DNA of 64,000 bases from a bacterium. GTDB taxonomy: Bacteria > Zhuqueibacterota > Zhuqueibacteria > Residuimicrobiales > Krinioviventaceae. The stretch lies in NCBI GenBank assembly GCA_963693055.1, contig OY843751.1, positions 928,001-992,000 of the forward strand. Direction: 5' to 3'. A program made the translations under genes and the position numbers. How positions within the stretch are numbered: the first letter of the stretch is position 1; each line of letters opens with the position of its first letter. The notes under the pieces are model-generated. The model ran no database searches, was not told where the DNA came from, and was given only the letters and a program-made list of their open reading frames with translations. Below are positions 50,929-61,102 of the stretch, in pieces.

Positions 50929-53900
50929 ATGTTGAAAAAAACGACAACCCTCACTTTTCAGATTGCTATTGCGGTCCTCCTGAGTCTTACCGCATTTGCA
51001 TTTGCGCAAACCAGTACAGATGACTTTGACCGTCCTGATGGCGCTCTGGGTGCTAACTGGACCTCTGATACCGATCTGGTAATTGCAAGCGGAAAATTGC
51101 ATAACCAAAGTGCAGGTTCTGACTGGTTACTTGCTATATATGATGGCAATGGAACCGTCACTAATCCTGATGAGGTCACAATTAATTGGGCTACTACCGG
51201 TGACGGAGTACAATGGGGTGGCGCAGCATTTGTGAATACCAATGCATCCGTTGGGGCTGCAAACGGTTACCTGGTCCAATATCGGCTCAGCTCTCCTAAC
51301 AAAATCCGTTTATGGAAAATTACTTCCGGCGCATTGGATGTAGGTGCAGGTATTGTTGATGAAGTAACCGCATCCGGTTCTGCTCCCACTGCTGATGCTC
51401 CTTTGAAAGTGAATCTTGACCCTGCAACCTACACATTACAGGTTTATGTGGATGATGTGATTGCCGGATCAGTTCAAGATGCAGGTGCTTCATATGATCT
51501 GACCAATCGTTTTGGTGCTGTGGTACTGGCAAGTGGTTCAAGCCTGAATAATGATGTTGAAGATTTTACCGTTGGCATTGAAACTCCGGACAATATTGCA
51601 CCCAATGCAGTGTCTGATTTGAGTGCAACAGCTACCGGAGCTTCTACAGTATTGCTGGAATGGACAGCAAGCGGAGATGACGGAGCTACCGGGCAGGCTT
51701 CACAATATGATATTCGTTATTCAACAAGTCCTATTGCCACCAATACAGACTTTTCAAATGCACAACAAGTAAACGGAGAACCTACACCTCAGATAACCGG
51801 CTCTGACGAGTCTTTTGTTGTGAATGGATTGAATGCCAGCACCACTTATTATTTTTGTCTAAAGGTTGGTGATGATAATGGCAACTTTTCTGCTATTTCG
51901 AATTCAACCTATGCCGCTACAGAAGAAAGTGGCGGGACAGGCAGCGAAGGTGGATTACTAACAGTCACAGATGATTTTGAACGTGCTGATTTGGGTACCA
52001 GTTGGGCTGCAACAGCCAAACACCAAATCAAAAATGGTACGTTAGATGTTATTGATGGTACATCAACAGACTGGAATAACCTTGCCGTATATAAAGGTAA
52101 CCGTTCAGTGAGTCCTGCGGGTGTTTCAATTTGGCTGGATGATACGGAATGTAGTGCTAGTGGTGCGCTGGCTGTAGGTACAGCTATTTTGCTGGATTCC
52201 CCTTCAAGTAGTGCCAGTGGTTATTTTATTTTACGACGTACCAGCAGTCTTGAATTGTGGGATTTAAGCAATGGTGTTGTTGGAGCAGGTGGACGTTTGG
52301 CACGTGATTCCAATCCAGACCAACCTGATCCTACTCCTGGAGATAGAATTAAGGTCATGGTAACCGGTGATGACGATACCGGTACTATTACTATAGATGT
52401 ATATGTAAATGATTATATGGACGGACAGTTTATATTAAATGGTACCGAACCCTCTACCTGGTATGCAGGTGTTTTTCAACATGGTTCTTATGCAAATAAT
52501 ATAGATGCTTTTACTATATATTCTGATGGCAGCAGTGCTGAAATGATCAGTGAATATTATGGAAATGGCCAGGCTGGTCCTATTCAGGCAACTTTGAGTG
52601 ATTCCATTGCCGTTCAGGTTACCGATGGTTTGGGTAATCCTGCAGCGGGCACTGTTGTTAATTTTGATATTGTAAATGGTGATGCTACACTGAGTATTGA
52701 TAGTTATGATTACGGCGGTTTGATCTGGAAAGAAGTTGAAGATGGTGCTATTCTTTCTCCTGCTGTTACTCAGGCAGATGCAAACGCCTCAAATGGTACT
52801 TTTGTATTAACTCCTAATGATATACAATACTCCCGACAGGGTGGTTCGGTTATGAACCTGTATGTTCCTGAAGCGGGTAATTTTAATGTATGGTTACGTG
52901 TAATTGCTCCTTCGTCCACCTCAAATAGTTTGTTTTTGCGGGTTAATGATGGCGATACAACAGAAGTGAAATGGGGTAACACCTGGACTTCCTGGCGTTG
53001 GGAGATGCTTAAAAATATTAGTCTGGCAAAAGGATTTAACCAGGTCAGTATTTTAACACGTGAAGAAGGTACACAATTTGACAAGATTGTGCTTGCTGAA
53101 ACCACCAAGCAGCCCGGTTACACACCTACGGGAACGGGCGGTTCAGGATCAACTTTGCCAAACGTTACGGATGTGAATGGTATTGCATATACATTTGTAA
53201 CCTTTTTAACCAATGCTGACGATGATGTTGTAATTGAAGCTTCTGCTTTTAAAGATGATGGCTCAACTGCATTAACCGGCTCTCCGGTAACATTTACTCT
53301 TGATCCTATATCAGGTTCCGCTGTTTCTATTGTCAGAGACCCCGCGCAGCCGGATACTCTTTTGGGTGAACCCATTCAGCAAATGACAACGCCATTGCGT
53401 GCCTATGTACGAGATTCTTTTGGCAATGGTGTTAGCGGTGTTTCTGTAAGTTGGGCGATTACAGAAGGAACCGGTACTTTATCTTCATCTCAAAATACAA
53501 CGGGTAATACTGGTACTTCTGAGACCTATTTAACGTTGTCAGCACAAAATACACCTTATACTATACAGGCAACAGCTGCAGGTCTTTCCGGATCTCCGGT
53601 CAGTTTTTATGTAAAACCGGGTGATCCCCCAACGGAAATACAGCAAACCAATCCTACAACACAGGTAGCTGGTGATGCTGGTGTTGAATTGACAGAAATT
53701 TTAACAGTTCGCGTAATTACCGAAGATGGTACGCCATTTCCGGGTTTTCCGGTAAATTATGTAGTAACCGAAGGTGATGGAGCACTGAGTTCTGAACTTG
53801 GCTCTGAAAACGCTACTGAAATACAGATCCTTTCTGATGAAAACGGTTATGCCCGCGCGCGTTGGGTATTGGGAGATGAACCCGGTCTCAATCGTGTTGA

Positions 53901-56900
53901 AGCACAAGCAGAAGGATTGACCAACAGTCCAATTTTATTTGAAGCTTTGGGTGAAATTGGCGATCCTTCCTTATTAACCATTATTGATGGTAATAATCAA
54001 TCTGGTCCTTTGGGACTTGCATTGCAAGAACCTTTTATTGTTAAATTAACTGATCAGGTTGGTAATGGTATCCCAAATCAGAATATAGAATATCGTATAC
54101 TTCAAGGTTCTGGTGCAACGTTGGGATCTTCAGGATTAACAGTTCGGAACGTAAAAACTGATGCAGAAGGTGTTGCCCGGGATACGTTGGTGATTGGTAA
54201 TCAGGTAGGCCAAACACACCAGGTGCAGGTATCTGTTGCAGGTAATTCTTCGGTATCCGCTCAAATCTTTTATGCAACTGCTACAGCAGCAATTGCAAGT
54301 GAAATTGTCTATGTTTCTGGTAATGGTGTCAAAGTCGGAACCGCTTATAATTATCAGAGTTCTACCGTGAATACTACATTGGCTCAGGACTTTATCGTTC
54401 AGGTGAATGGTCCTTTTGGTAATGATCCTATTGCCGGCCATGCGGTTACATTTAGAGTTGTAAGCGGTGGTGGTAATTTTTATGGTAATAACAGTACAAC
54501 AGTCAGTACCGGTCCTGATGGAAGAGCGTCTGCAAGACTGACATTGGGTTCTGTAGCTGGCGACAGTGTGCACATAGTTGAAGCTACGGCAAACCGTGTT
54601 GATAATACAACCTTGATGTTAAACAATGCTCCCATCATCTTTAAAGCTGATGGGACGGCATCTGATCCCAACAAGATCACCAAAATGGACTCTACAGACA
54701 ACCAAACCGGTATTGTTGGCGATCCGCTTACTAAACAGGTTCAGGCACTAGTTTCTGATATTTATGGTAATCCTATTAGTGGTCACCAGGTGACTTTTCA
54801 GATTATAAATAATGGTGGCGCATTGCAGGGCTCTACCGGTGAACCGGCTCAGGCCAAACAGGTAACGACCAACGCAAAAGGTATTGCTTCCATTATTTGG
54901 GTTATGCCCACTACACCCGGTCAGGTCCAGATGCAGGCTTTTGCAACAACTGCTACAAGCAATCCTTTGACGGGCAGCCCCATTACATACACCGCTTATG
55001 CCGGCGTTGATGCTGCATATGAAATGGTCAGAGTAACCGGTCAAGATTTGTCTGGTATTGTGGGACAACCACTTGCAGAAAATGCAAGCGTGAAAATTGT
55101 TGATCAATACTCGAATGCAGTTTCCAGTTACCCTGTAACCTTTACCATTACCGATGGTAATGGTCTTGTGAATGGCAGCAATCAGGTTACCGTTCAAACC
55201 GGCACGAATGGAATTGCTTCAGTAGAGTGGACATTGGGTACCGAAAGTGGTTTTGAAAATAATGCTATGGAAGCCACTTCTAGTGTATCAATGAATAATA
55301 AAGAAACCTTTACCGCATCCGGATTGGCTGATGTAGCTTTCCGTATGATTGCGGATTCAACCTATGATACCTTTGGTATTGTAGGCGAGTTGCTGGATAC
55401 ACCCATCAAGGTATTGATTGTTGACCAGTACGATAACCCTGTTGCGGACTATCCCGTAACATTTGAAATTGATGATATTGATGATAATGTAGGTTTTATT
55501 GAAACTGAAGGTACCTTGTCGAAAGTAGAGTCTACTGATGATGACGGTTATGCTCAAATTCGTTGGGGATTGGGACCAAATCCTGGTTCTCAAAACAACA
55601 AACTGACCGTTACTACTAAACGGAATAACATTCATTTAATCAATTCTCCTTATAATGGATTTGTAGTTTCCGCACAGGCGGGTAACGCTTACCAAGTAAT
55701 CAAAGTAACCGATGATGTAACCAAAGAGCTTAGCTCTGTTCATGGCAGCACTTTGCCCGAATATTTAAAGGTCAAGGTTGTTGATAAATTTGGAACTCCT
55801 ATCGCAAGACATCCGGTAACATTCCAGGTATTGAGCCGACTGGTTGCTGATGGTGGTACCCTTGACGGCAGTGTAGATACCGTAAAGGTTAAAGAGACGG
55901 ATTCTAATGGTATTGCATCTGTACAGTTTACTTTGGGTCTGAATGCCGGAAGCAAGATTAATCAGGTCCAGTATGTTGCTGAATTAAATGGCGAGAACCT
56001 TGAAGGCTCACCAGGCACATTCGAGATAACTGGTCTGTCTTCTACCGCCACCCAAATTGTCAAGGTAGCTGGTGATGAACAGCCAGACGGTATTGTGGGC
56101 CAGTTCTGGGATATTCCATTGCAGGTTGCTGCTAAAGATAAAAATGGAAACTATGTTGCCGGACAACCGGTCAGTTTCAAGATTTTACCCAAAGAGGATT
56201 TAATTGAAGAAACACTGGGTTCGTTGGGCGCCGGAACTGCAACCGATACTACGATTTTAACCAACGCTGAAGGACTTGCCATTATTAACTGGCGTGCTGG
56301 TCATCTGGTTGGTGAATATCAGGTCCAGGTTACTTCCTTTGCACTTGCAGAACTTGCCGGTTCACCCATGACTTTTACTGCGACTGCTTTTGCAGAAACC
56401 ACAGACGCAGACCAGTCCATGATTTCAGTCAATCCGGACAGTCTGAATGTTTCTGATGGTTCAATCAGATCTACAATCGTAGTAACATTAAAAGATAAAT
56501 ATGGTAATCCGGTTCAAAACAAGGGTGTTACTTTACAAGCCTCCGGAACCGGTAATATCATCACACAACCGGCTACAGCATCTAATTCAAATGGTCAGGT
56601 AACCGGTTATATTGCATCTGAAAATTCTGGCTTGAAAAATATTTCAGCCCGCGATATTAATAATGAAGTTGATATGGTAGACAAGGCCCAGGTTTATTTC
56701 CGTGCTTCCGAAGCAGACAGGATTGTTAAACATCCGACTGCGAATGGAGACGGACAAAAACGTAACGTGGGTACAGTACTTGAAAATCCACTTCAGGTTG
56801 TTGTTGAAGATTCGTACGGCAACCCCATTCCCAATTTCCCGGTAGTGTTTACAGTTACAGGAGCACAAACGGGTGGTCAGATTGTTGAAAATGTAAATGT

Positions 56901-59154
56901 AACAACTGATGAAAATGGTGTTGCATCTCGTTATTACAGACTTGGTACGGTTAAAGGTATAAATACAATCCAGGTGACTGCACAGGGCATATCCGGTTCT
57001 TCGGTGATTTTCAATGTTGAAAGTGATAATCCCGTTGATTTGCAGAAACCCGTAATTGTAAGTGGTGACAGCGCTCGTGTTTCTCCTGCCCAGCCATTGC
57101 CCGAAGACCTGGTTGTTCAAGTTGTAGATGAACGCGGTTGGCCGGTTTGGAATGAAGGTGTATTGTTTGAAGCATTGAGTACAAACGATGGTCAAATAAC
57201 CAGTAGTAATCCACACAATACCGATTGGTATGGATACGCACGCGCGCAAGCCCAGGTTGGTACCAAAGTGGGTATTAATCTCTTTAGCGCAAAACTTGAA
57301 GAATATCCTGGTAAAGGTACAGTTACATTCTATGCATGGACTGTATCTGCATCTACTGCCAAGTATCTTACTTTTGTAAGCGGACCTACCAGTGGTGTTG
57401 TAGGTCAATCTTTGAGTAGTCCGGTCATTATGAAAACTACGGATGAATATGACAACCCGGTACAGAATGTTACCGTAACATTCCTGGTTGTGGATGATGC
57501 CAGTGTTGACGGTGCAGGTACTTTGCAAGGTGGATTGAAATCCGTAACAAAACAAACAGACAGTAATGGTGAAGTAAGTATATTTTATACACTGGATACA
57601 GTAAGCGGAATAAACAAGATCCGTGTATCTTCATTAAATCTTGAACCCAGTAGTTATGTGGTAACCATAACAGGTAATGCGGATTCACCCTACCGTATGG
57701 AGAAATTCTCTGGTGATAATCAGCGTGGTGAAATGAGTAAACACTTGTTTAATCCTATCTATGTTATGGTACGTGACAGATACGGCAACCCGGCTCCTGG
57801 TGGTGTTGTGACCTTTACCGTAACTCAGGGTGATGGCAGCATCGATGGCGATCAATCCGTACAATCCAATTCAAACGGTCTTGCCAGAGCATACTGGGTA
57901 TTAGGCCCGCGTCCATATGCTGTAAACAACAGTGTTCAGGTTACCAGCTCTTATTTGCAGGGAGGTCCTTTGACTTTTAATGCAACAGGAGATGATCAAA
58001 ATTATCCTGAATTCTCATCATTGCCAAGTAATGTTGAAGTATTTGAGCTTGCAAATATAAGGCTCGAAATTTCAGCTACTGATGAAGATGGCGAAAACGT
58101 ATTCTATAACTCTCAGAATCTGCCATCAGGTGCAAGCTTTGAGATGGAAAGTAACAACAAGTACTATTTCAAATGGACACCGGGACTTGATGTTGTAAAC
58201 AGTCCGGATGTCAGCCAGACATTCTACCCGATCTTTATTGCTCAGGATGATCATGATCCCTCTGGTCGTGTAAAGGATTCGGTCAAAGTTGTAATCAAAA
58301 ATTACAACCGTCCGCCCGAAATTACTAAATATACACCGGAAGCTTCCAGCTTGGATTGGAATCAGGATGAAGTAGCGAGTATTTCTTTTAGTATTGAAAC
58401 CAATGATCTGGATAATGATCCTTTGACTGTTACCTGGTATGTGGGAGACACCCAGGTTGAAGAAGGTCATAATTTGACATTGACTAGTGGTGATTATGAA
58501 AATGGTGTCTATACTGTTAAAGTTAGCGTGAGTGATCAGTTTGCGACCACTGAAAAGTTATGGCAGGTTACTACATCATTAGTCGAGTTGAGTAGTTTTA
58601 GCGCTGTTTCTGAACCTTATAAAGGGATTACCGTTGAGTGGGAAACAGCATCAGAAATTGCAACCGCTGGATTCAATGTATTACGGAGTCTTTCAGAAAC
58701 CGGTACATTTGAAAAAATCAACGAGGATATGATTCTGCCCAACAAGGAAAAGATCTATAGTATTCAGGATAAAGAAGTTCAATCCGGGCAGACCTATTAT
58801 TACAAGCTTGAAGATGTTAGCCTTAGCGGACTTGCAACCCATCATGGTCCTATCTCTGTAGAGGCGCCGGTTCCGAAAAAGTTCTCGTTATCTCAGAACT
58901 ATCCGAATCCGTTTAACCCGGTTACGACTATCCAGTTCGAGCTGCCTAAACATACAGATGTTACCATAGAGGTCTATAATATTATGGGACAAATGGTGAA
59001 TCAACTGATCAATACTCGATTTGAAGCCGGATACCACACCGTTCAATGGGATGGTACAAATTCGAATGGTATGCGGGTTGGTTCAGGTGTTTACTATTAC
59101 CGAATTATAGCCGGAGATTTCAAGAATGTTAAAAAGATGGTATTGTTGAAATAA
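50929..59154 (+). CDS. Giant (2741 aa) secreted adhesin-like protein: 2 DDF(D/E)R lectin-like domains, FN3, ~15 Big_1/invasin-type Ig repeats, CBM-like insert, cadherin-like domains, FlgD-Ig/T9SS-type C-terminal sorting domain
   Basis: GGAGGT RBS, signal peptide, WTASGDDG..YDIRYS FN3, repeated GD.Q.G.VG..L..PL.V.V.D.YGNPV, VELSSFSA, LSQNYPNPFNPVTTI...GVYYYRI...KKMVLLK. Confidence 0.9.
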   Translation: MLKKTTTLTFQIAIAVLLSLTAFAFAQTSTDDFDRPDGALGANWTSDTDLVIASGKLHNQSAGSDWLLAIYDGNGTVTNPDEVTINWATTGDGVQWGGAAFVNTNASVGAANGYLVQYRLSSPNKIRLWKITSGALDVGAGIVDEVTASGSAPTADAPLKVNLDPATYTLQVYVDDVIAGSVQDAGASYDLTNRFGAVVLASGSSLNNDVEDFTVGIETPDNIAPNAVSDLSATATGASTVLLEWTASGDDGATGQASQYDIRYSTSPIATNTDFSNAQQVNGEPTPQITGSDESFVVNGLNASTTYYFCLKVGDDNGNFSAISNSTYAATEESGGTGSEGGLLTVTDDFERADLGTSWAATAKHQIKNGTLDVIDGTSTDWNNLAVYKGNRSVSPAGVSIWLDDTECSASGALAVGTAILLDSPSSSASGYFILRRTSSLELWDLSNGVVGAGGRLARDSNPDQPDPTPGDRIKVMVTGDDDTGTITIDVYVNDYMDGQFILNGTEPSTWYAGVFQHGSYANNIDAFTIYSDGSSAEMISEYYGNGQAGPIQATLSDSIAVQVTDGLGNPAAGTVVNFDIVNGDATLSIDSYDYGGLIWKEVEDGAILSPAVTQADANASNGTFVLTPNDIQYSRQGGSVMNLYVPEAGNFNVWLRVIAPSSTSNSLFLRVNDGDTTEVKWGNTWTSWRWEMLKNISLAKGFNQVSILTREEGTQFDKIVLAETTKQPGYTPTGTGGSGSTLPNVTDVNGIAYTFVTFLTNADDDVVIEASAFKDDGSTALTGSPVTFTLDPISGSAVSIVRDPAQPDTLLGEPIQQMTTPLRAYVRDSFGNGVSGVSVSWAITEGTGTLSSSQNTTGNTGTSETYLTLSAQNTPYTIQATAAGLSGSPVSFYVKPGDPPTEIQQTNPTTQVAGDAGVELTEILTVRVITEDGTPFPGFPVNYVVTEGDGALSSELGSENATEIQILSDENGYARARWVLGDEPGLNRVEAQAEGLTNSPILFEALGEIGDPSLLTIIDGNNQSGPLGLALQEPFIVKLTDQVGNGIPNQNIEYRILQGSGATLGSSGLTVRNVKTDAEGVARDTLVIGNQVGQTHQVQVSVAGNSSVSAQIFYATATAAIASEIVYVSGNGVKVGTAYNYQSSTVNTTLAQDFIVQVNGPFGNDPIAGHAVTFRVVSGGGNFYGNNSTTVSTGPDGRASARLTLGSVAGDSVHIVEATANRVDNTTLMLNNAPIIFKADGTASDPNKITKMDSTDNQTGIVGDPLTKQVQALVSDIYGNPISGHQVTFQIINNGGALQGSTGEPAQAKQVTTNAKGIASIIWVMPTTPGQVQMQAFATTATSNPLTGSPITYTAYAGVDAAYEMVRVTGQDLSGIVGQPLAENASVKIVDQYSNAVSSYPVTFTITDGNGLVNGSNQVTVQTGTNGIASVEWTLGTESGFENNAMEATSSVSMNNKETFTASGLADVAFRMIADSTYDTFGIVGELLDTPIKVLIVDQYDNPVADYPVTFEIDDIDDNVGFIETEGTLSKVESTDDDGYAQIRWGLGPNPGSQNNKLTVTTKRNNIHLINSPYNGFVVSAQAGNAYQVIKVTDDVTKELSSVHGSTLPEYLKVKVVDKFGTPIARHPVTFQVLSRLVADGGTLDGSVDTVKVKETDSNGIASVQFTLGLNAGSKINQVQYVAELNGENLEGSPGTFEITGLSSTATQIVKVAGDEQPDGIVGQFWDIPLQVAAKDKNGNYVAGQPVSFKILPKEDLIEETLGSLGAGTATDTTILTNAEGLAIINWRAGHLVGEYQVQVTSFALAELAGSPMTFTATAFAETTDADQSMISVNPDSLNVSDGSIRSTIVVTLKDKYGNPVQNKGVTLQASGTGNIITQPATASNSNGQVTGYIASENSGLKNISARDINNEVDMVDKAQVYFRASEADRIVKHPTANGDGQKRNVGTVLENPLQVVVEDSYGNPIPNFPVVFTVTGAQTGGQIVENVNVTTDENGVASRYYRLGTVKGINTIQVTAQGISGSSVIFNVESDNPVDLQKPVIVSGDSARVSPAQPLPEDLVVQVVDERGWPVWNEGVLFEALSTNDGQITSSNPHNTDWYGYARAQAQVGTKVGINLFSAKLEEYPGKGTVTFYAWTVSASTAKYLTFVSGPTSGVVGQSLSSPVIMKTTDEYDNPVQNVTVTFLVVDDASVDGAGTLQGGLKSVTKQTDSNGEVSIFYTLDTVSGINKIRVSSLNLEPSSYVVTITGNADSPYRMEKFSGDNQRGEMSKHLFNPIYVMVRDRYGNPAPGGVVTFTVTQGDGSIDGDQSVQSNSNGLARAYWVLGPRPYAVNNSVQVTSSYLQGGPLTFNATGDDQNYPEFSSLPSNVEVFELANIRLEISATDEDGENVFYNSQNLPSGASFEMESNNKYYFKWTPGLDVVNSPDVSQTFYPIFIAQDDHDPSGRVKDSVKVVIKNYNRPPEITKYTPEASSLDWNQDEVASISFSIETNDLDNDPLTVTWYVGDTQVEEGHNLTLTSGDYENGVYTVKVSVSDQFATTEKLWQVTTSLVELSSFSAVSEPYKGITVEWETASEIATAGFNVLRSLSETGTFEKINEDMILPNKEKIYSIQDKEVQSGQTYYYKLEDVSLSGLATHHGPISVEAPVPKKFSLSQNYPNPFNPVTTIQFELPKHTDVTIEVYNIMGQMVNQLINTRFEAGYHTVQWDGTNSNGMRVGSGVYYYRIIAGDFKNVKKMVLLK

Positions 59155-59174
59155 GGAAAATTTTCCGGTAGGTT
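59155..59174 (+). repeat. Left terminal inverted repeat
   Basis: GGAAAATTTTCCGGTAGGTT; outer 12 bp palindromic. Confidence 0.82.
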
Positions 59175-59259
59175 TTGGAAAAAAGGCGGTTATTTCATAT
59201 AGTATTTACTAGAAGTAACCGGAAGTCAAACAAAGATTTCAAAACTTACCGGAGGACAA

Positions 59260-60087
59260 ATGTACAATACTCGTAGTAGTTTGTATGACAGGATATTAGA
59301 AAAAACACCCGAGCAAGTATTCATCAATTCTTTACGAAAAGAATTTGAATTATCACCGGCAGAAAGTAAAGGGATATTGGATTTAGCCAAGCAGTGTTTA
59401 TTTGGCGAGGTTCCCCAGACAGTTGGTAAAATAAAATATATCTGCGCATCCACCAAGGCAAAACATGGCAAGCCCCTGGGTGAGCAGGAATTGAAAGAAG
59501 TAGAGTTAACACTGGATGCCGGTGTAGAAGATTTAAATGTATTAAAAGAAAGCGGTCCCAAGGCACTGCGCCAGTTAAAGGTCTTACGATTGACCGAAGA
59601 AGCCTGGGATCAGGAAGGTTCTTTGACACAAGAGGATTTGGCCCGGATCCTCCAGGTTACGAGTCGCACTGTACGCCAGGATATAAAGTCTTTGCAGACT
59701 GATGGCAACTTTATTCACACGCGCGGAACAGACCATGACATCGGTCGGAGCTTGTCACACAAAAGCCACATTATTGAACTGTATTTGCAGGGAGACACAT
59801 ACGATGCAATTATTCGTAAAAGTCGTCATAGCGCGTTTTCAATAAAACGATATGTGTGCAGCTTTGGCAGGCTGTTGTTATTACTGAATCATGGTATGCA
59901 GGATATCAAAGAGATCAGTCGGTTATTAGGCCAAAGTGAGCGTTTGACCCGTGAGTACCTGGATATTTTTGAGCATCATAAACAGGGTGACAAATGGCCG
60001 CCGATCTATGTAGAGTTATTGGAGCAATTAAAGGTGTTATACCCCTCGAAAAAAAAACAAACCAAGGAGGGGATCGATGAAGACTAA
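59260..60087 (+). CDS. DUF1670-family HTH protein A (candidate transposition protein)
   Basis: GGAGG RBS; RLTEEAWDQEGSLTQEDLARILQVTSRTVRQDI (HTH), TRG..HDIG..LSHK..IIELYLQG, HS..SIKRY. Confidence 0.82.
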   Translation: MYNTRSSLYDRILEKTPEQVFINSLRKEFELSPAESKGILDLAKQCLFGEVPQTVGKIKYICASTKAKHGKPLGEQELKEVELTLDAGVEDLNVLKESGPKALRQLKVLRLTEEAWDQEGSLTQEDLARILQVTSRTVRQDIKSLQTDGNFIHTRGTDHDIGRSLSHKSHIIELYLQGDTYDAIIRKSRHSAFSIKRYVCSFGRLLLLLNHGMQDIKEISRLLGQSERLTREYLDIFEHHKQGDKWPPIYVELLEQLKVLYPSKKKQTKEGIDED

Positions 60088-60892
60088 GCCTTTAAATCGT
60101 TATGAATCAATAGCTAAGCGTAGCTTTCAAAATGCGATTATTCGATTACTGGAAGAAAATTATAAAATGCTGGGAAGCCACAAAGTCATCCGGATGATTG
60201 CAGAAGATATTGTCGCATTGCAAAATGAATTTTATCCAGAGCTGGAAAAGAAAAGTTTTGGTCAGATTATCTGGCGGACAACCAAAGCGACAAACCGAAA
60301 GCCAAGCTATGGCACAAAAGCGGAAGATTATGAGGTTCAGACAGTTGTGCTACCGTTGGTAACAGATGCGGATATTGACAATCGTATCAAAAGCCATTAT
60401 TCTTATCCCCCAAAAGATGGCAGTGCTAATTATGAAAAACAAACAGAACGGGATATTAAAGTAATGGCGCGGTTATGCAAGAGTGCGGCAGAACAGGGCG
60501 GCTGGTTGACAGGTGCAGAACTCAGTGTATTGTTGAATCGCTCATTAAACACTATTGGTCGGTATATGACAATTTATCATGAAACGCATGATGATATATT
60601 GCCGACTAAAGGAATGATGCTGGATCAGGGCAGTAAGCCGACGCATAAAGCCGCAATTATAGATTTGTACGAGCAGGGATATCCCGAACCGGATATCGCC
60701 CGGATTACAAATCACACAATTGAATCAACGAGTCGGTATTTAAAGAGTTACAAGAACGTAAAATCATTATTGGAAAAAGGTTTTAATTTAATGGAAATGG
60801 TAAGAATAACCGGATTAGGACGGAGTACAATATTACAATACCGTGATCTGGTTTATCATTATCATTCAGATTTAATACAAAAGAAAACTTGA
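60077..60892 (+). CDS. DUF1670-family HTH protein B (paralogue of A)
   Basis: AAGGAGG RBS, overlaps the A stop by 11 nt; RLCKSAAEQGGWLTGAELSVLLNRSLNTI, PTKG..LDQG..PTHK..IIDLYEQG, NHT.ESTSRY. Confidence 0.82.
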   Translation: MKTKPLNRYESIAKRSFQNAIIRLLEENYKMLGSHKVIRMIAEDIVALQNEFYPELEKKSFGQIIWRTTKATNRKPSYGTKAEDYEVQTVVLPLVTDADIDNRIKSHYSYPPKDGSANYEKQTERDIKVMARLCKSAAEQGGWLTGAELSVLLNRSLNTIGRYMTIYHETHDDILPTKGMMLDQGSKPTHKAAIIDLYEQGYPEPDIARITNHTIESTSRYLKSYKNVKSLLEKGFNLMEMVRITGLGRSTILQYRDLVYHYHSDLIQKKT

Positions 60893-60923
60893 AAATTTGA
60901 AAAGGAATTAATAGGTTAGGTTG

Positions 60924-60984
60924 TCATTGTTTTTCAGCTAACTCCAGTCGCCCTACGGGCTCCTTTCGTTAGCTGAAAAAATGA
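60924..60984 (+). other. Structured stem-loop inside the element's right end (possible cis-acting RNA or ssDNA structure)
   Basis: 13-bp stem TTTTTCAGCTAAC/GTTAGCTGAAAAA enclosing an internal loop and a GCCC-TACG-GGC hairpin (C-UACG-G, UNCG-type tetraloop). Confidence 0.65.
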
Positions 60985-61007
60985 ATAAATGTTCTAATCT
61001 TAAAAAC

Positions 61008-61027
61008 AACCTACCGGAAATATTTCC
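61008..61027 (-). repeat. Right terminal inverted repeat
   Basis: AACCTACCGGAAATATTTCC; outer 12 bp GGAAATATTTCC palindromic. Confidence 0.82.
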
Positions 61028-61057
61028 TAAACGTAAATAAAAATAAACTCCAGATCA

Positions 61058-61102
61058 AACAAAAAAAAGCCGGCATCTTTAAGATGCCGGCTTTTTTTTG
61101 TT
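61058..61102. terminator. Bidirectional intrinsic terminator between convergent genes
   Basis: AACAAAAAAAAGCCGGCATCTT-T-AAGATGCCGGCTTTTTTTTGTT; 22-bp arms with A8/T8 tracts. Confidence 0.92.

Follow-up and report, generated by a model that had tools for sequence, protein, structure and literature searches.

A mobile insertion element carries a pair of DUF1670 genes with a conserved D/H/H/Y motif and may be moved by their products

Near one end of a 64,000-nt stretch of a Krinioviventaceae genome (phylum Zhuqueibacterota; assembly GCA_963693055.1, contig OY843751.1, forward-strand positions 928,001 to 992,000; hereafter, the window) lie two overlapping genes, A and B, of the Pfam family DUF1670 (PF07900). 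What do their products do? A sequence-only reading had noticed an H...Y motif in both and proposed a minimal, highly diverged tyrosine recombinase or transposase, while allowing that the match could equally be a plain helix-turn-helix (HTH) pattern. We identified A and B as the only genes of a mobile insertion element (Table 1). The motif comprises an Asp, two His and a Tyr (D/H/H/Y) that are near-invariant in the family and disappear together from accessory copies of the domain. From these sequences and the predicted folds we favour, at about even confidence, a reading in which A and B are the element's own recombinase and D/H/H/Y, set on an HTH, is a tyrosine-nucleophile site unrelated by descent to that of XerC/D.

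The A/B region is mobile because it is present in multiple near-identical copies with fixed ends and because orthologous sites are empty. The complete host genome (G000) contains seven copies of the element (family 1), six at 98.8-100% identity and one at 92.7% (BLAST), and the element was missing at all five orthologous sites checked in a sister species (G085). A second family, 1,850 bp long and with different boxes at its ends, encodes a pair 33% identical to A/B and has six copies that are 100% identical to one another (tblastn). No other long open reading frame (ORF) was found in either family. The non-coding regions of the window copy measure 110 and 140 nt and fold better than shuffled sequences (z -4.5 and -3.9, partly through internal repeats). 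Pfam matched neither A nor B to a DDE domain or to an HUH or resolvase catalytic family; the structural model is helical with one hairpin and places the two His of the motif 23 residues apart on helices and a turn. HUH motifs sit on a beta-sheet (IS200/IS605, IS91), and serine enzymes such as that of IS607 have a resolvase catalytic domain.

Insertion takes place inside the last codon of a gene, which receives a replacement stop from the element. The 13 insertions in the host genome occupy 12 sites (one holds a tandem), of which 11 are the final Lys-stop of genes with a type A sorting domain of the type IX secretion system (T9SS; model TIGR04183 was scored on the window gene only); the twelfth is AT-rich and non-coding. 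At an AAG TAG site the left junction reads AA|ATAA and the right one AA|GTAG, with only AA shared and the stop codon brought by the element. A 5-bp AAATA duplication, which fits the window copy, failed at this site and at an AAAAC site and was rejected. Similar sorting domains end 251 ORFs of the host genome, most often in Lys-TAA, and 155 of its 23,135 AARTAR sites are Lys-stops of sorting-domain genes. With leave-one-out target matrices built on 11 sites (excluding the off-target insertion and the second of the tandem), the joint probability among non-disruptive sites was 1e-5 for positions -12..+4, 0.03 for -20..+4 and 0.13 for -30..+4. Because the longest matrix gives 0.13, a degenerate DNA signal of ~25-35 bp together with selection would be enough; a long-range targeting cue was rejected as a necessity, since this matrix and the loss of disruptive insertions largely suffice. 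Copies in Halanaerobium lie in AT-rich sites, with TAR after the core in one of five. Families 1 and 2 stand in tandem at one stop codon (L166, G000:C1:507200-512300) and at the stops of two convergent genes ~70 nt apart (L167, G000:C1 1345700-1350800); another tandem (L016) has a different element end.

DUF1670 was present in 33 of 167 genomes of the host's phylum. A scan of a genome collection confirmed 131 of 166 stretches and left 80 loci from many bacterial phyla and from archaea, with a second DUF1670 ORF just downstream in 73. The control genome of Methanosarcina acetivorans, a cultured host, also had a DUF1670 match over the cut-off. Plasmids and phages gave no match by tblastn, and viral contigs yielded one weak locus. 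The two genes are inherited together: a 100% branch separates A from B in a quick tree (34 + 34 rows), and A distances correlate with B distances (Mantel r 0.90 over 68 pairs), as linkage alone would lead one to expect. This co-divergence, the overlap of the genes by 11 nt and the natural fusion of A to B in 3 of 14 fusion proteins suggest that A and B work together.

The ends share one layout across the family. A 12-bp palindromic box (GGNCAWWTGNCC) was called at 62 loci, its frequencies being circular as the consensus itself was used for the calls, and is followed by an extension of 4 nt at one end and 7 nt at the other (8 nt in family 2). In the 43 elements whose ends could be assigned (10 others, ambiguous, were set aside), the two flanks matched each other above shuffle only at positions -2 and -1 (36 and 39 vs 28.6 and 32.3). 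In the 16 cases other than AA/AA, the two nucleotides matched in 7 and mismatched in 9. The long end lies upstream of A in 28 elements and downstream of B in 15; an opposite orientation of the two families was considered and rejected, as they agree when oriented by long and short end, with the gene cassette flipped. The layout suits a 2-nt core of conservative recombination and a cassette flipped between clades, and we read the two nucleotides as a core rather than a duplication because 9 of the 16 non-AA cases are mismatched; a 2-bp duplication obscured by later change would also be compatible with the flanks. The subterminal repeats and these unduplicated cores also set the elements apart from classical insertion sequences.

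Such ends resemble those of IS1111/IS110 elements in their subterminal inverted repeats, asymmetric extensions (here 7 and 4 nt from the box), 2-nt core and fixed orientation at a specific target. The terminal extensions of IS1111 are 7 and 3 bp (PMC11187229), and the 2-nt core of IS621-type elements is stricter at its second base (PMC11208158), as in our elements. An IS1111-like RNA-guided unit moved in trans by an IS110 recombinase, with A and B as passengers, is nevertheless extremely improbable. Unlike IS1111/IS110, which use a DEDD and Ser recombinase with a bridge or seek RNA, the DUF1670 element has two genes in place of one and no RuvC/DEDD domain: PF01548 was absent from A and B and had no match in the G000 genome, which is 100% complete. 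The elements are also often too tight for a long non-coding RNA, with only 14-60 nt between gene B and the repeat in many relatives, and no Rfam match inside the element reached the gathering score.

End-to-end joints were absent from the contigs of four runs (contigs drop rare forms), and the exact joined-end junction had 0 matches in metagenome contigs. A degenerate form of the junction had 11 matches in metagenome contigs and 0 in viral contigs: one is an ordinary element end, three belong to a mini relic and seven have no DUF1670 nearby. The relic is a 48-bp, gene-less sequence at another sorting-domain stop codon, present in three contigs (L266:2186-2240, L267 and L269), in the order short end, box, inverted long-AA-short junction, box, long end. 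Joined ends are thereby shown to occur as DNA, and a circle and a tandem fit alike. The relic may also stem from exchange at the palindromic boxes, an event that could account for the flipped cassette as well. The ends of the relic resemble those of two other loci (L084/L085).

Both proteins match DUF1670 above the gathering cut-off of 25 bits (A, 160 bits, E 7e-47; B, 164 bits, E 5e-48) and are paralogues, with 31% identity over 139 aa and a profile-profile probability of 100%. The residue string is T154-R155-G156-x3-D160-x-G162, then H167-K168-x9-G178-x11-H190-x7-Y198 in A, and T177-K178-G179-x3-D183-x-G185, then H190-K191-x9-G201-x11-H213-x7-Y221 in B. On re-check, the positions and spacings given for the H...Y motif in the sequence-only reading were exact, and the T(R/K)G...D.G stretch that it placed ahead of the motif is present as TRG in A (154-156) and TKG in B (177-179). 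The motif is beyond chance, because the 26 ORFs matching HK-x9-G-x11-H-x7-Y among 5,428 in the genome are all DUF1670 genes (13 element copies, two genes each) and five shuffles gave 0-1 matches.

We scored conservation on two sets: the 79 intact A/B pairs found at 111 loci, which gave 68 A and 69 B sequences once redundancy was removed, and a wider alignment of 91 sequences, made up of A, B and 89 representatives of clusters at 50%. The A sequences of the genome-collection scan were found via patterns covering R155, D160 and Q118, which biases these three positions in A; the B sequences and the H/K/H/Y positions are free of this bias. At ~33% mean identity, the motif residues are near-invariant in A (D160, H167, K/R168 and Y198 in 68/68, H190 in 67) and in B (D183, H190, K191 and Y221 in 69/69, H213 in 68), as they are in the wider alignment (H167 89, K/R168 91, H190 88 and Y198 87 of 91). 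Family-wide invariance of H, H and Y, the check that had been proposed for the motif, thus came out near-complete in both paralogues (67-68/68 in A, 68-69/69 in B). The Gly of the box-II-like spacing is not part of the conserved motif, as only 58/68 A and 32/69 B sequences keep it (60/91 in the wider alignment). Y198/Y221 is never F or W in the 137 sequences, and the Tyr of the next HTH in A is F or W in 8 of 68. A run of A residues in the DNA that encodes KK lies close to the end of gene A (window 60048-60057, with an equivalent in family 2), just ahead of the A/B overlap; this KK (K265/K266) is kept in ~70 of the 91 aligned sequences.

Fusion proteins revealed how the motif behaves in surplus copies of the domain. 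In 14 DUF1670 fusions, D/H/H/Y is kept in 21 of 21 complete repeats. Eleven degenerate N-terminal repeats have largely dropped these residues (D kept in 2, H167 in 1, H190 in 0, Y in 1) yet keep R110 (11) and Q118 (10), in a count from which one spurious short match was removed and in which some columns are gaps. Joint loss of this kind in accessory copies is, we infer, the behaviour of catalytic residues. Proteins P0138, P0143, P0146 and P0158 (930-952 aa) have three repeats, the first degenerate, the second without K168 and the third without R155; P0191, P0205, P0216, P0240, P0250, P0253 and P0255 (506-572 aa) have two, the first degenerate. A lone, intact B-like gene (L028, 1417-2277, minus strand) is without D, K, H190 and Y and possibly encodes a domesticated DNA-binding protein. 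The N-terminal half of DUF1670 (hairpin, long helix, winged HTH and TRG, with R110, Q118 and R155-G156) also ends three large tetratricopeptide repeat (TPR) proteins, without the remainder of the domain (L227, L228 and L230; Chloroflexota genome G174), where it apparently serves as a DNA-binding output domain.

Does the motif descend from tyrosine recombinases? We compared it with 34 aligned PF00589 domains from the host phylum, in which G-x-R-x-x-E (box I), the catalytic Lys and H-x-x-R are invariant and for which the box II pattern quoted in the sequence-only reading, RH-x9-G-x11-H-x8-Y, is correct. DUF1670 has HK in place of RH and x7 in place of x8 between H and Y. Its S/T-H-K/R has no His three residues ahead of the basic residue, so that H-x-x-R was not found, and no pattern like box I with a catalytic Lys occurs among its conserved columns. 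Profile comparison (hhalign) with tyrosine recombinases gave 0.56% (E 0.1) at full length and 0.44% (E 0.14) for the motif. At E<=1, Pfam assigned PF00589 to neither A nor B, and no integrase family was among the 25 families listed for 85 DUF1670 homologues. In the structural model Y198 lies within a long recognition helix that a second, homologous HTH follows, and full-length and motif-only models matched HTHs at Z<=6.4 among the 50 matches listed. Descent from box II is not supported, because the motif has HK for RH and lacks both H-x-x-R and box I, and profile probabilities are 0.4-0.6% against 91% for the LuxR HTH. What stands of the earlier proposal is that A and B are the sole genes of a mobile element, with an invariant H/H/Y, a Tyr predicted to face the DNA backbone and a D/H/H/Y set that is lost together; the kinship does not.

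We therefore regard a true, extremely diverged tyrosine recombinase, with A and B paralleling XerC and XerD, as very improbable. The G-x11-H and HK/RH-x9-G spacings do match XerC/D box II, and the predicted junction, with inverted arms, a short spacer and exchange at one edge, resembles integrase sites; the Gly on which the spacing turns is, however, kept in fewer than half of the B sequences. XerC/XerD, Cre and lambda Int (PF00589) are like the DUF1670 pair in a H...Y spacing near box II, in two paralogues and, if we read the DUF1670 side correctly, in a likely Tyr nucleophile and conservative recombination between inverted arms. They differ in that the DUF1670 motif sits on a predicted LuxR/sigma4-type HTH with an invariant Asp and shows no detectable profile similarity, and in a shared core of 2 nt. 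Tyrosine recombinases have overlaps of 6-8 nt. Paired integrases and asymmetric footprints are known from SE and Tn554 elements, and SE, GInt, RIT and Tn554 elements encode canonical RHRY tyrosine recombinases and bear a 6-bp footprint from the previous target (PMC10214605). They resemble ours in several recombinase-like genes, some without catalytic residues, in imperfect terminal repeats, in target specificity and in a one-sided footprint. The 7-nt extension of the DUF1670 elements is instead lineage-constant, only 2 nt vary, and the long end is not taken from the last target as in SE elements.

The AlphaFold2 model of A (pLDDT 87, pTM 0.60) predicts N-terminal helices, a beta-hairpin, a long helix with a winged HTH and then two tandem three-helix HTHs, the first of which holds H167, H190 and Y198; HTH folds are predicted for A and B alike. 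Modelled alone, the motif segment forms three helices and matches LuxR, sigma-4, resolvase and transposase HTHs (Z 5.5-6.2). The full-length model matches winged-helix regulators (best Z 6.4); Z values of this size are common and carry no functional information. Foldseek returned no match at E<=0.001 against PDB or viral models, a PDB sequence search gave weak HTH matches only, and ESM Atlas returned DUF1670 clusters only, then scores <=0.81. No tyrosine recombinase, topoisomerase IB or topoisomerase V was among the 50 matches listed by VIA-align for either model. The A+B complex prediction scored 0.21 against a mark of 0.32 and is used neither for nor against pairing.

The motif profile aligned with the LuxR/GerE HTH (hhalign 91%, E 1e-6), and the alignment sets Y198 against a near-invariant LuxR His, S194 against an invariant Thr and, by ungapped extension, H167/K168 against an invariant Arg/Glu. 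H190 stands where HTHs have a core Ile or Val, and D160 has no HTH counterpart. In NarL, His190 touches the DNA backbone (PMC10853779). The Tyr would face a phosphate because Y198 aligns with the LuxR His that contacts the backbone; Y198 and Y221 are accordingly predicted to point towards it, and the equation of Y198 with NarL His190 depends on our reading of the residue numbering in that paper. The HTHs of LuxR/NarL, sigma-70 region 4 and resolvases thus share the fold of the motif-bearing unit. Unlike DUF1670, they are non-catalytic and have neither the invariant His in place of core Ile/Val nor the invariant Asp, and both of these residues revert in the degenerate repeats. The plain HTH pattern that the sequence-only reading had offered as the alternative is borne out by the predicted fold and leaves the joint loss of D/H/H/Y unexplained. 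Tandem HTHs with H and Y buried or not clustered had been named as an outcome that would speak against a recombinase: tandem HTHs are what the model predicts, with Y198 mapped to the backbone-facing side rather than buried.

Several observations weigh against a catalytic role of D/H/H/Y. The positions of H167, K168, S194 and Y198 vary little or not at all among LuxR HTHs as well, and a need to bind DNA could by itself keep these residues constant; a backbone-facing Tyr would be expected equally of a nucleophile and of a simple contact. In B, the next HTH has a near-invariant Tyr too (67/69), which weakens the argument from the absence of F and W. The fold matches are all to DNA-binding proteins without catalytic activity, apart from the winged helix of topoisomerase VI-A, whose Z of 5.7 is tied with regulators and which covers residues 97-156, outside the motif. 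The D160 loop is of lower model confidence, and the closeness of D, H, H and Y in space is presumed only. Of the 21 complete repeats, 4 lack R155 and 8 lack K168, none lacking both, and because of these losses the fixed core is D-x6-H-x22-H-x7-Y, not R-K-H-R-H-Y. These losses, together with the reuse of the R110/Q118/R155 half as the C-terminal HTH of TPR regulators, mean that there is no fixed Arg pair; R110 and R155 were rejected as integrase arginines on the same grounds.

In another explanation A and B do no more than bind the ends and the target and bring them together, and cutting and joining would fall to an enzyme of the host. All three folded units look like ordinary HTHs, the N-terminal half serves elsewhere as a regulator HTH and the host genome has seven tyrosine-recombinase matches, all in keeping with this explanation. 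Such an enzyme would nonetheless need to be near-universal, given the same end layout in bacteria and archaea. It would also have to serve two element families with different boxes in one host that has no IS110 recombinase, and it would not account for accessory repeats that drop D/H/H/Y yet keep R110/Q118. We consider it unlikely, if worth keeping in mind. Rather unlikely, too, is an A/B enzyme that uses a metal bound by D/H/H to transfer or hydrolyse strands directly, the Tyr serving just to grip the backbone. The most stable residues are indeed D, H, H and Y rather than Arg or Lys, a LuxR-type HTH is known to touch the backbone at the position of the Tyr (PMC10853779, as above) and the 2-nt match could be a small duplication (7 of the 16 non-AA cases). 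Against this chemistry stand the nine mismatched cores, the asymmetric, subterminal ends, which suit conservative recombination, and a Tyr that is never F in 137 sequences.

We favour A and B as the recombinase because movement calls for an enzyme, no further gene lies in the element, its end layout is the same in bacteria and archaea, and it has multiplied in a host that lacks IS110. In this mechanism A and B would act as a pair that binds the palindromic boxes, together with the asymmetric extensions of 4 and 7 nt, through its winged HTHs and remaining HTHs. Strands would be nicked at the core by Y198 and Y221, giving phosphotyrosine intermediates, and D/H/H would either activate the phosphate or coordinate a metal. 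Joining of the two ends would yield a circle (box-7 nt-AA-4 nt-box), which would recombine conservatively into an AA|RTAR site read over ~25-35 bp of DNA. Topoisomerase V (type IC), whose Tyr/Arg/Lys/His/acid site sits on a non-integrase fold (PMC2647283, PMC9489208), is a precedent for a Tyr site on a fold unrelated to integrases. The analogy is functional only: topoisomerase V is a topoisomerase and not a mobile-element enzyme, and it gave no sequence or fold match among the matches listed.

Table 1. Features of the DUF1670 insertion element and its target gene in the window.
Feature	Position	Strand	Basis
DUF1670 insertion element, 1,884 bp	59151..61034	+	7 host copies, identical ends; absent at 5/5 G085 sites
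Host target gene, 2,741 aa, ends in T9SS type A sorting domain, intact after insertion	50929..59154	+	TIGR04183 47 bits, cut-off 23
2-nt core AA, left; first two bases of the host gene's final Lys codon	59149..59150	+	7 copies, empty G085 site
Short end ATAA; gives the host gene its TAA stop (59152-59154)	59151..59154	+	Junction always AA|ATAA
Left palindromic box GGAAAATTTTCC (family consensus GGNCAWWTGNCC)	59155..59166	.	In 21-nt inverted repeat 59154-59174
Sigma70-like promoter candidate ahead of A, 9/12	59175..59203	+	Consensus match only
Gene A, DUF1670, 275 aa	59260..60087	+	Pfam and AlphaFold2 domain layout
Motif in A: R155, D160 (59737), H167 (59758), K168, H190 (59827), Y198 (59851-59853)	59722..59853	+	Alignments
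Gene B, DUF1670 paralogue, 271 aa	60077..60892	+	11 nt overlap with A
Motif in B: K178, D183, H190, K191, H213 (60713), Y221 (60737-60739)	60608..60739	+	Alignment
Imperfect hairpin, right non-coding region	60930..60980	.	Folding; not seen in close relatives such as L020
Right palindromic box GGAAATATTTCC	61016..61027	.	In inverted repeat 61008-61028
Long end TAAACGT; family pattern box, 7 nt, core	61028..61034	+	Identical in 7 copies, family-wide
2-nt core AA, right copy; target resumes at 61037	61035..61036	+	Junction comparison

Some further features of the locus and the genome complete the description. The position of the promoter candidate is taken by TTGACA in two relatives (L011 and L012), and the product of the target gene is a secreted-type protein with many repeats. 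Beyond the element, a perfect 22-nt hairpin with A and T runs at its sides (window 61058-61102) lies between convergent host genes, is kept in the sister species and resembles a bidirectional terminator. Isolated left- or right-end remnants of family 1 lie near G000:C1 1730445, 3844081, 5975631 and 333437, at least two of them at sorting-domain stops. A 26-bp exact match to the right-hand hairpin region (G000:C1:2227121-2227146) is found just upstream of a partial tyrosine-recombinase match (L118).

We found no description of DUF1670, PF07900 or the element in the literature, in a search that lay outside ISfinder, most subscription journals and supplements and that another name could have escaped; it is plausible that the element family is undescribed and its recombinase chemistry new. 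With confidence a little short of even, we propose from the sequences and models that the DUF1670 pair may be a further recombinase class beside the DDE, DEDD, HUH, serine and integrase-type enzymes. It would be a heterodimer of ~270-aa, all-HTH proteins with a nucleophilic Tyr on the recognition helix, integrating conservatively and in one orientation at a 2-nt core inside a last codon, with the stop restored, in bacteria and archaea. If this is true, a DNA-binding HTH has acquired the ability to cut and join DNA on a path separate from that of the known transposase and recombinase folds, and an uncharacterised Pfam family spread over bacteria and archaea has a function. The small element, its ends of 16-21 bp, its single insertion orientation and a target gene left undamaged would be of interest for DNA-insertion tools. 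Even with a host enzyme doing the chemistry, these elements would constitute an insertion-sequence family without a recognisable transposase.

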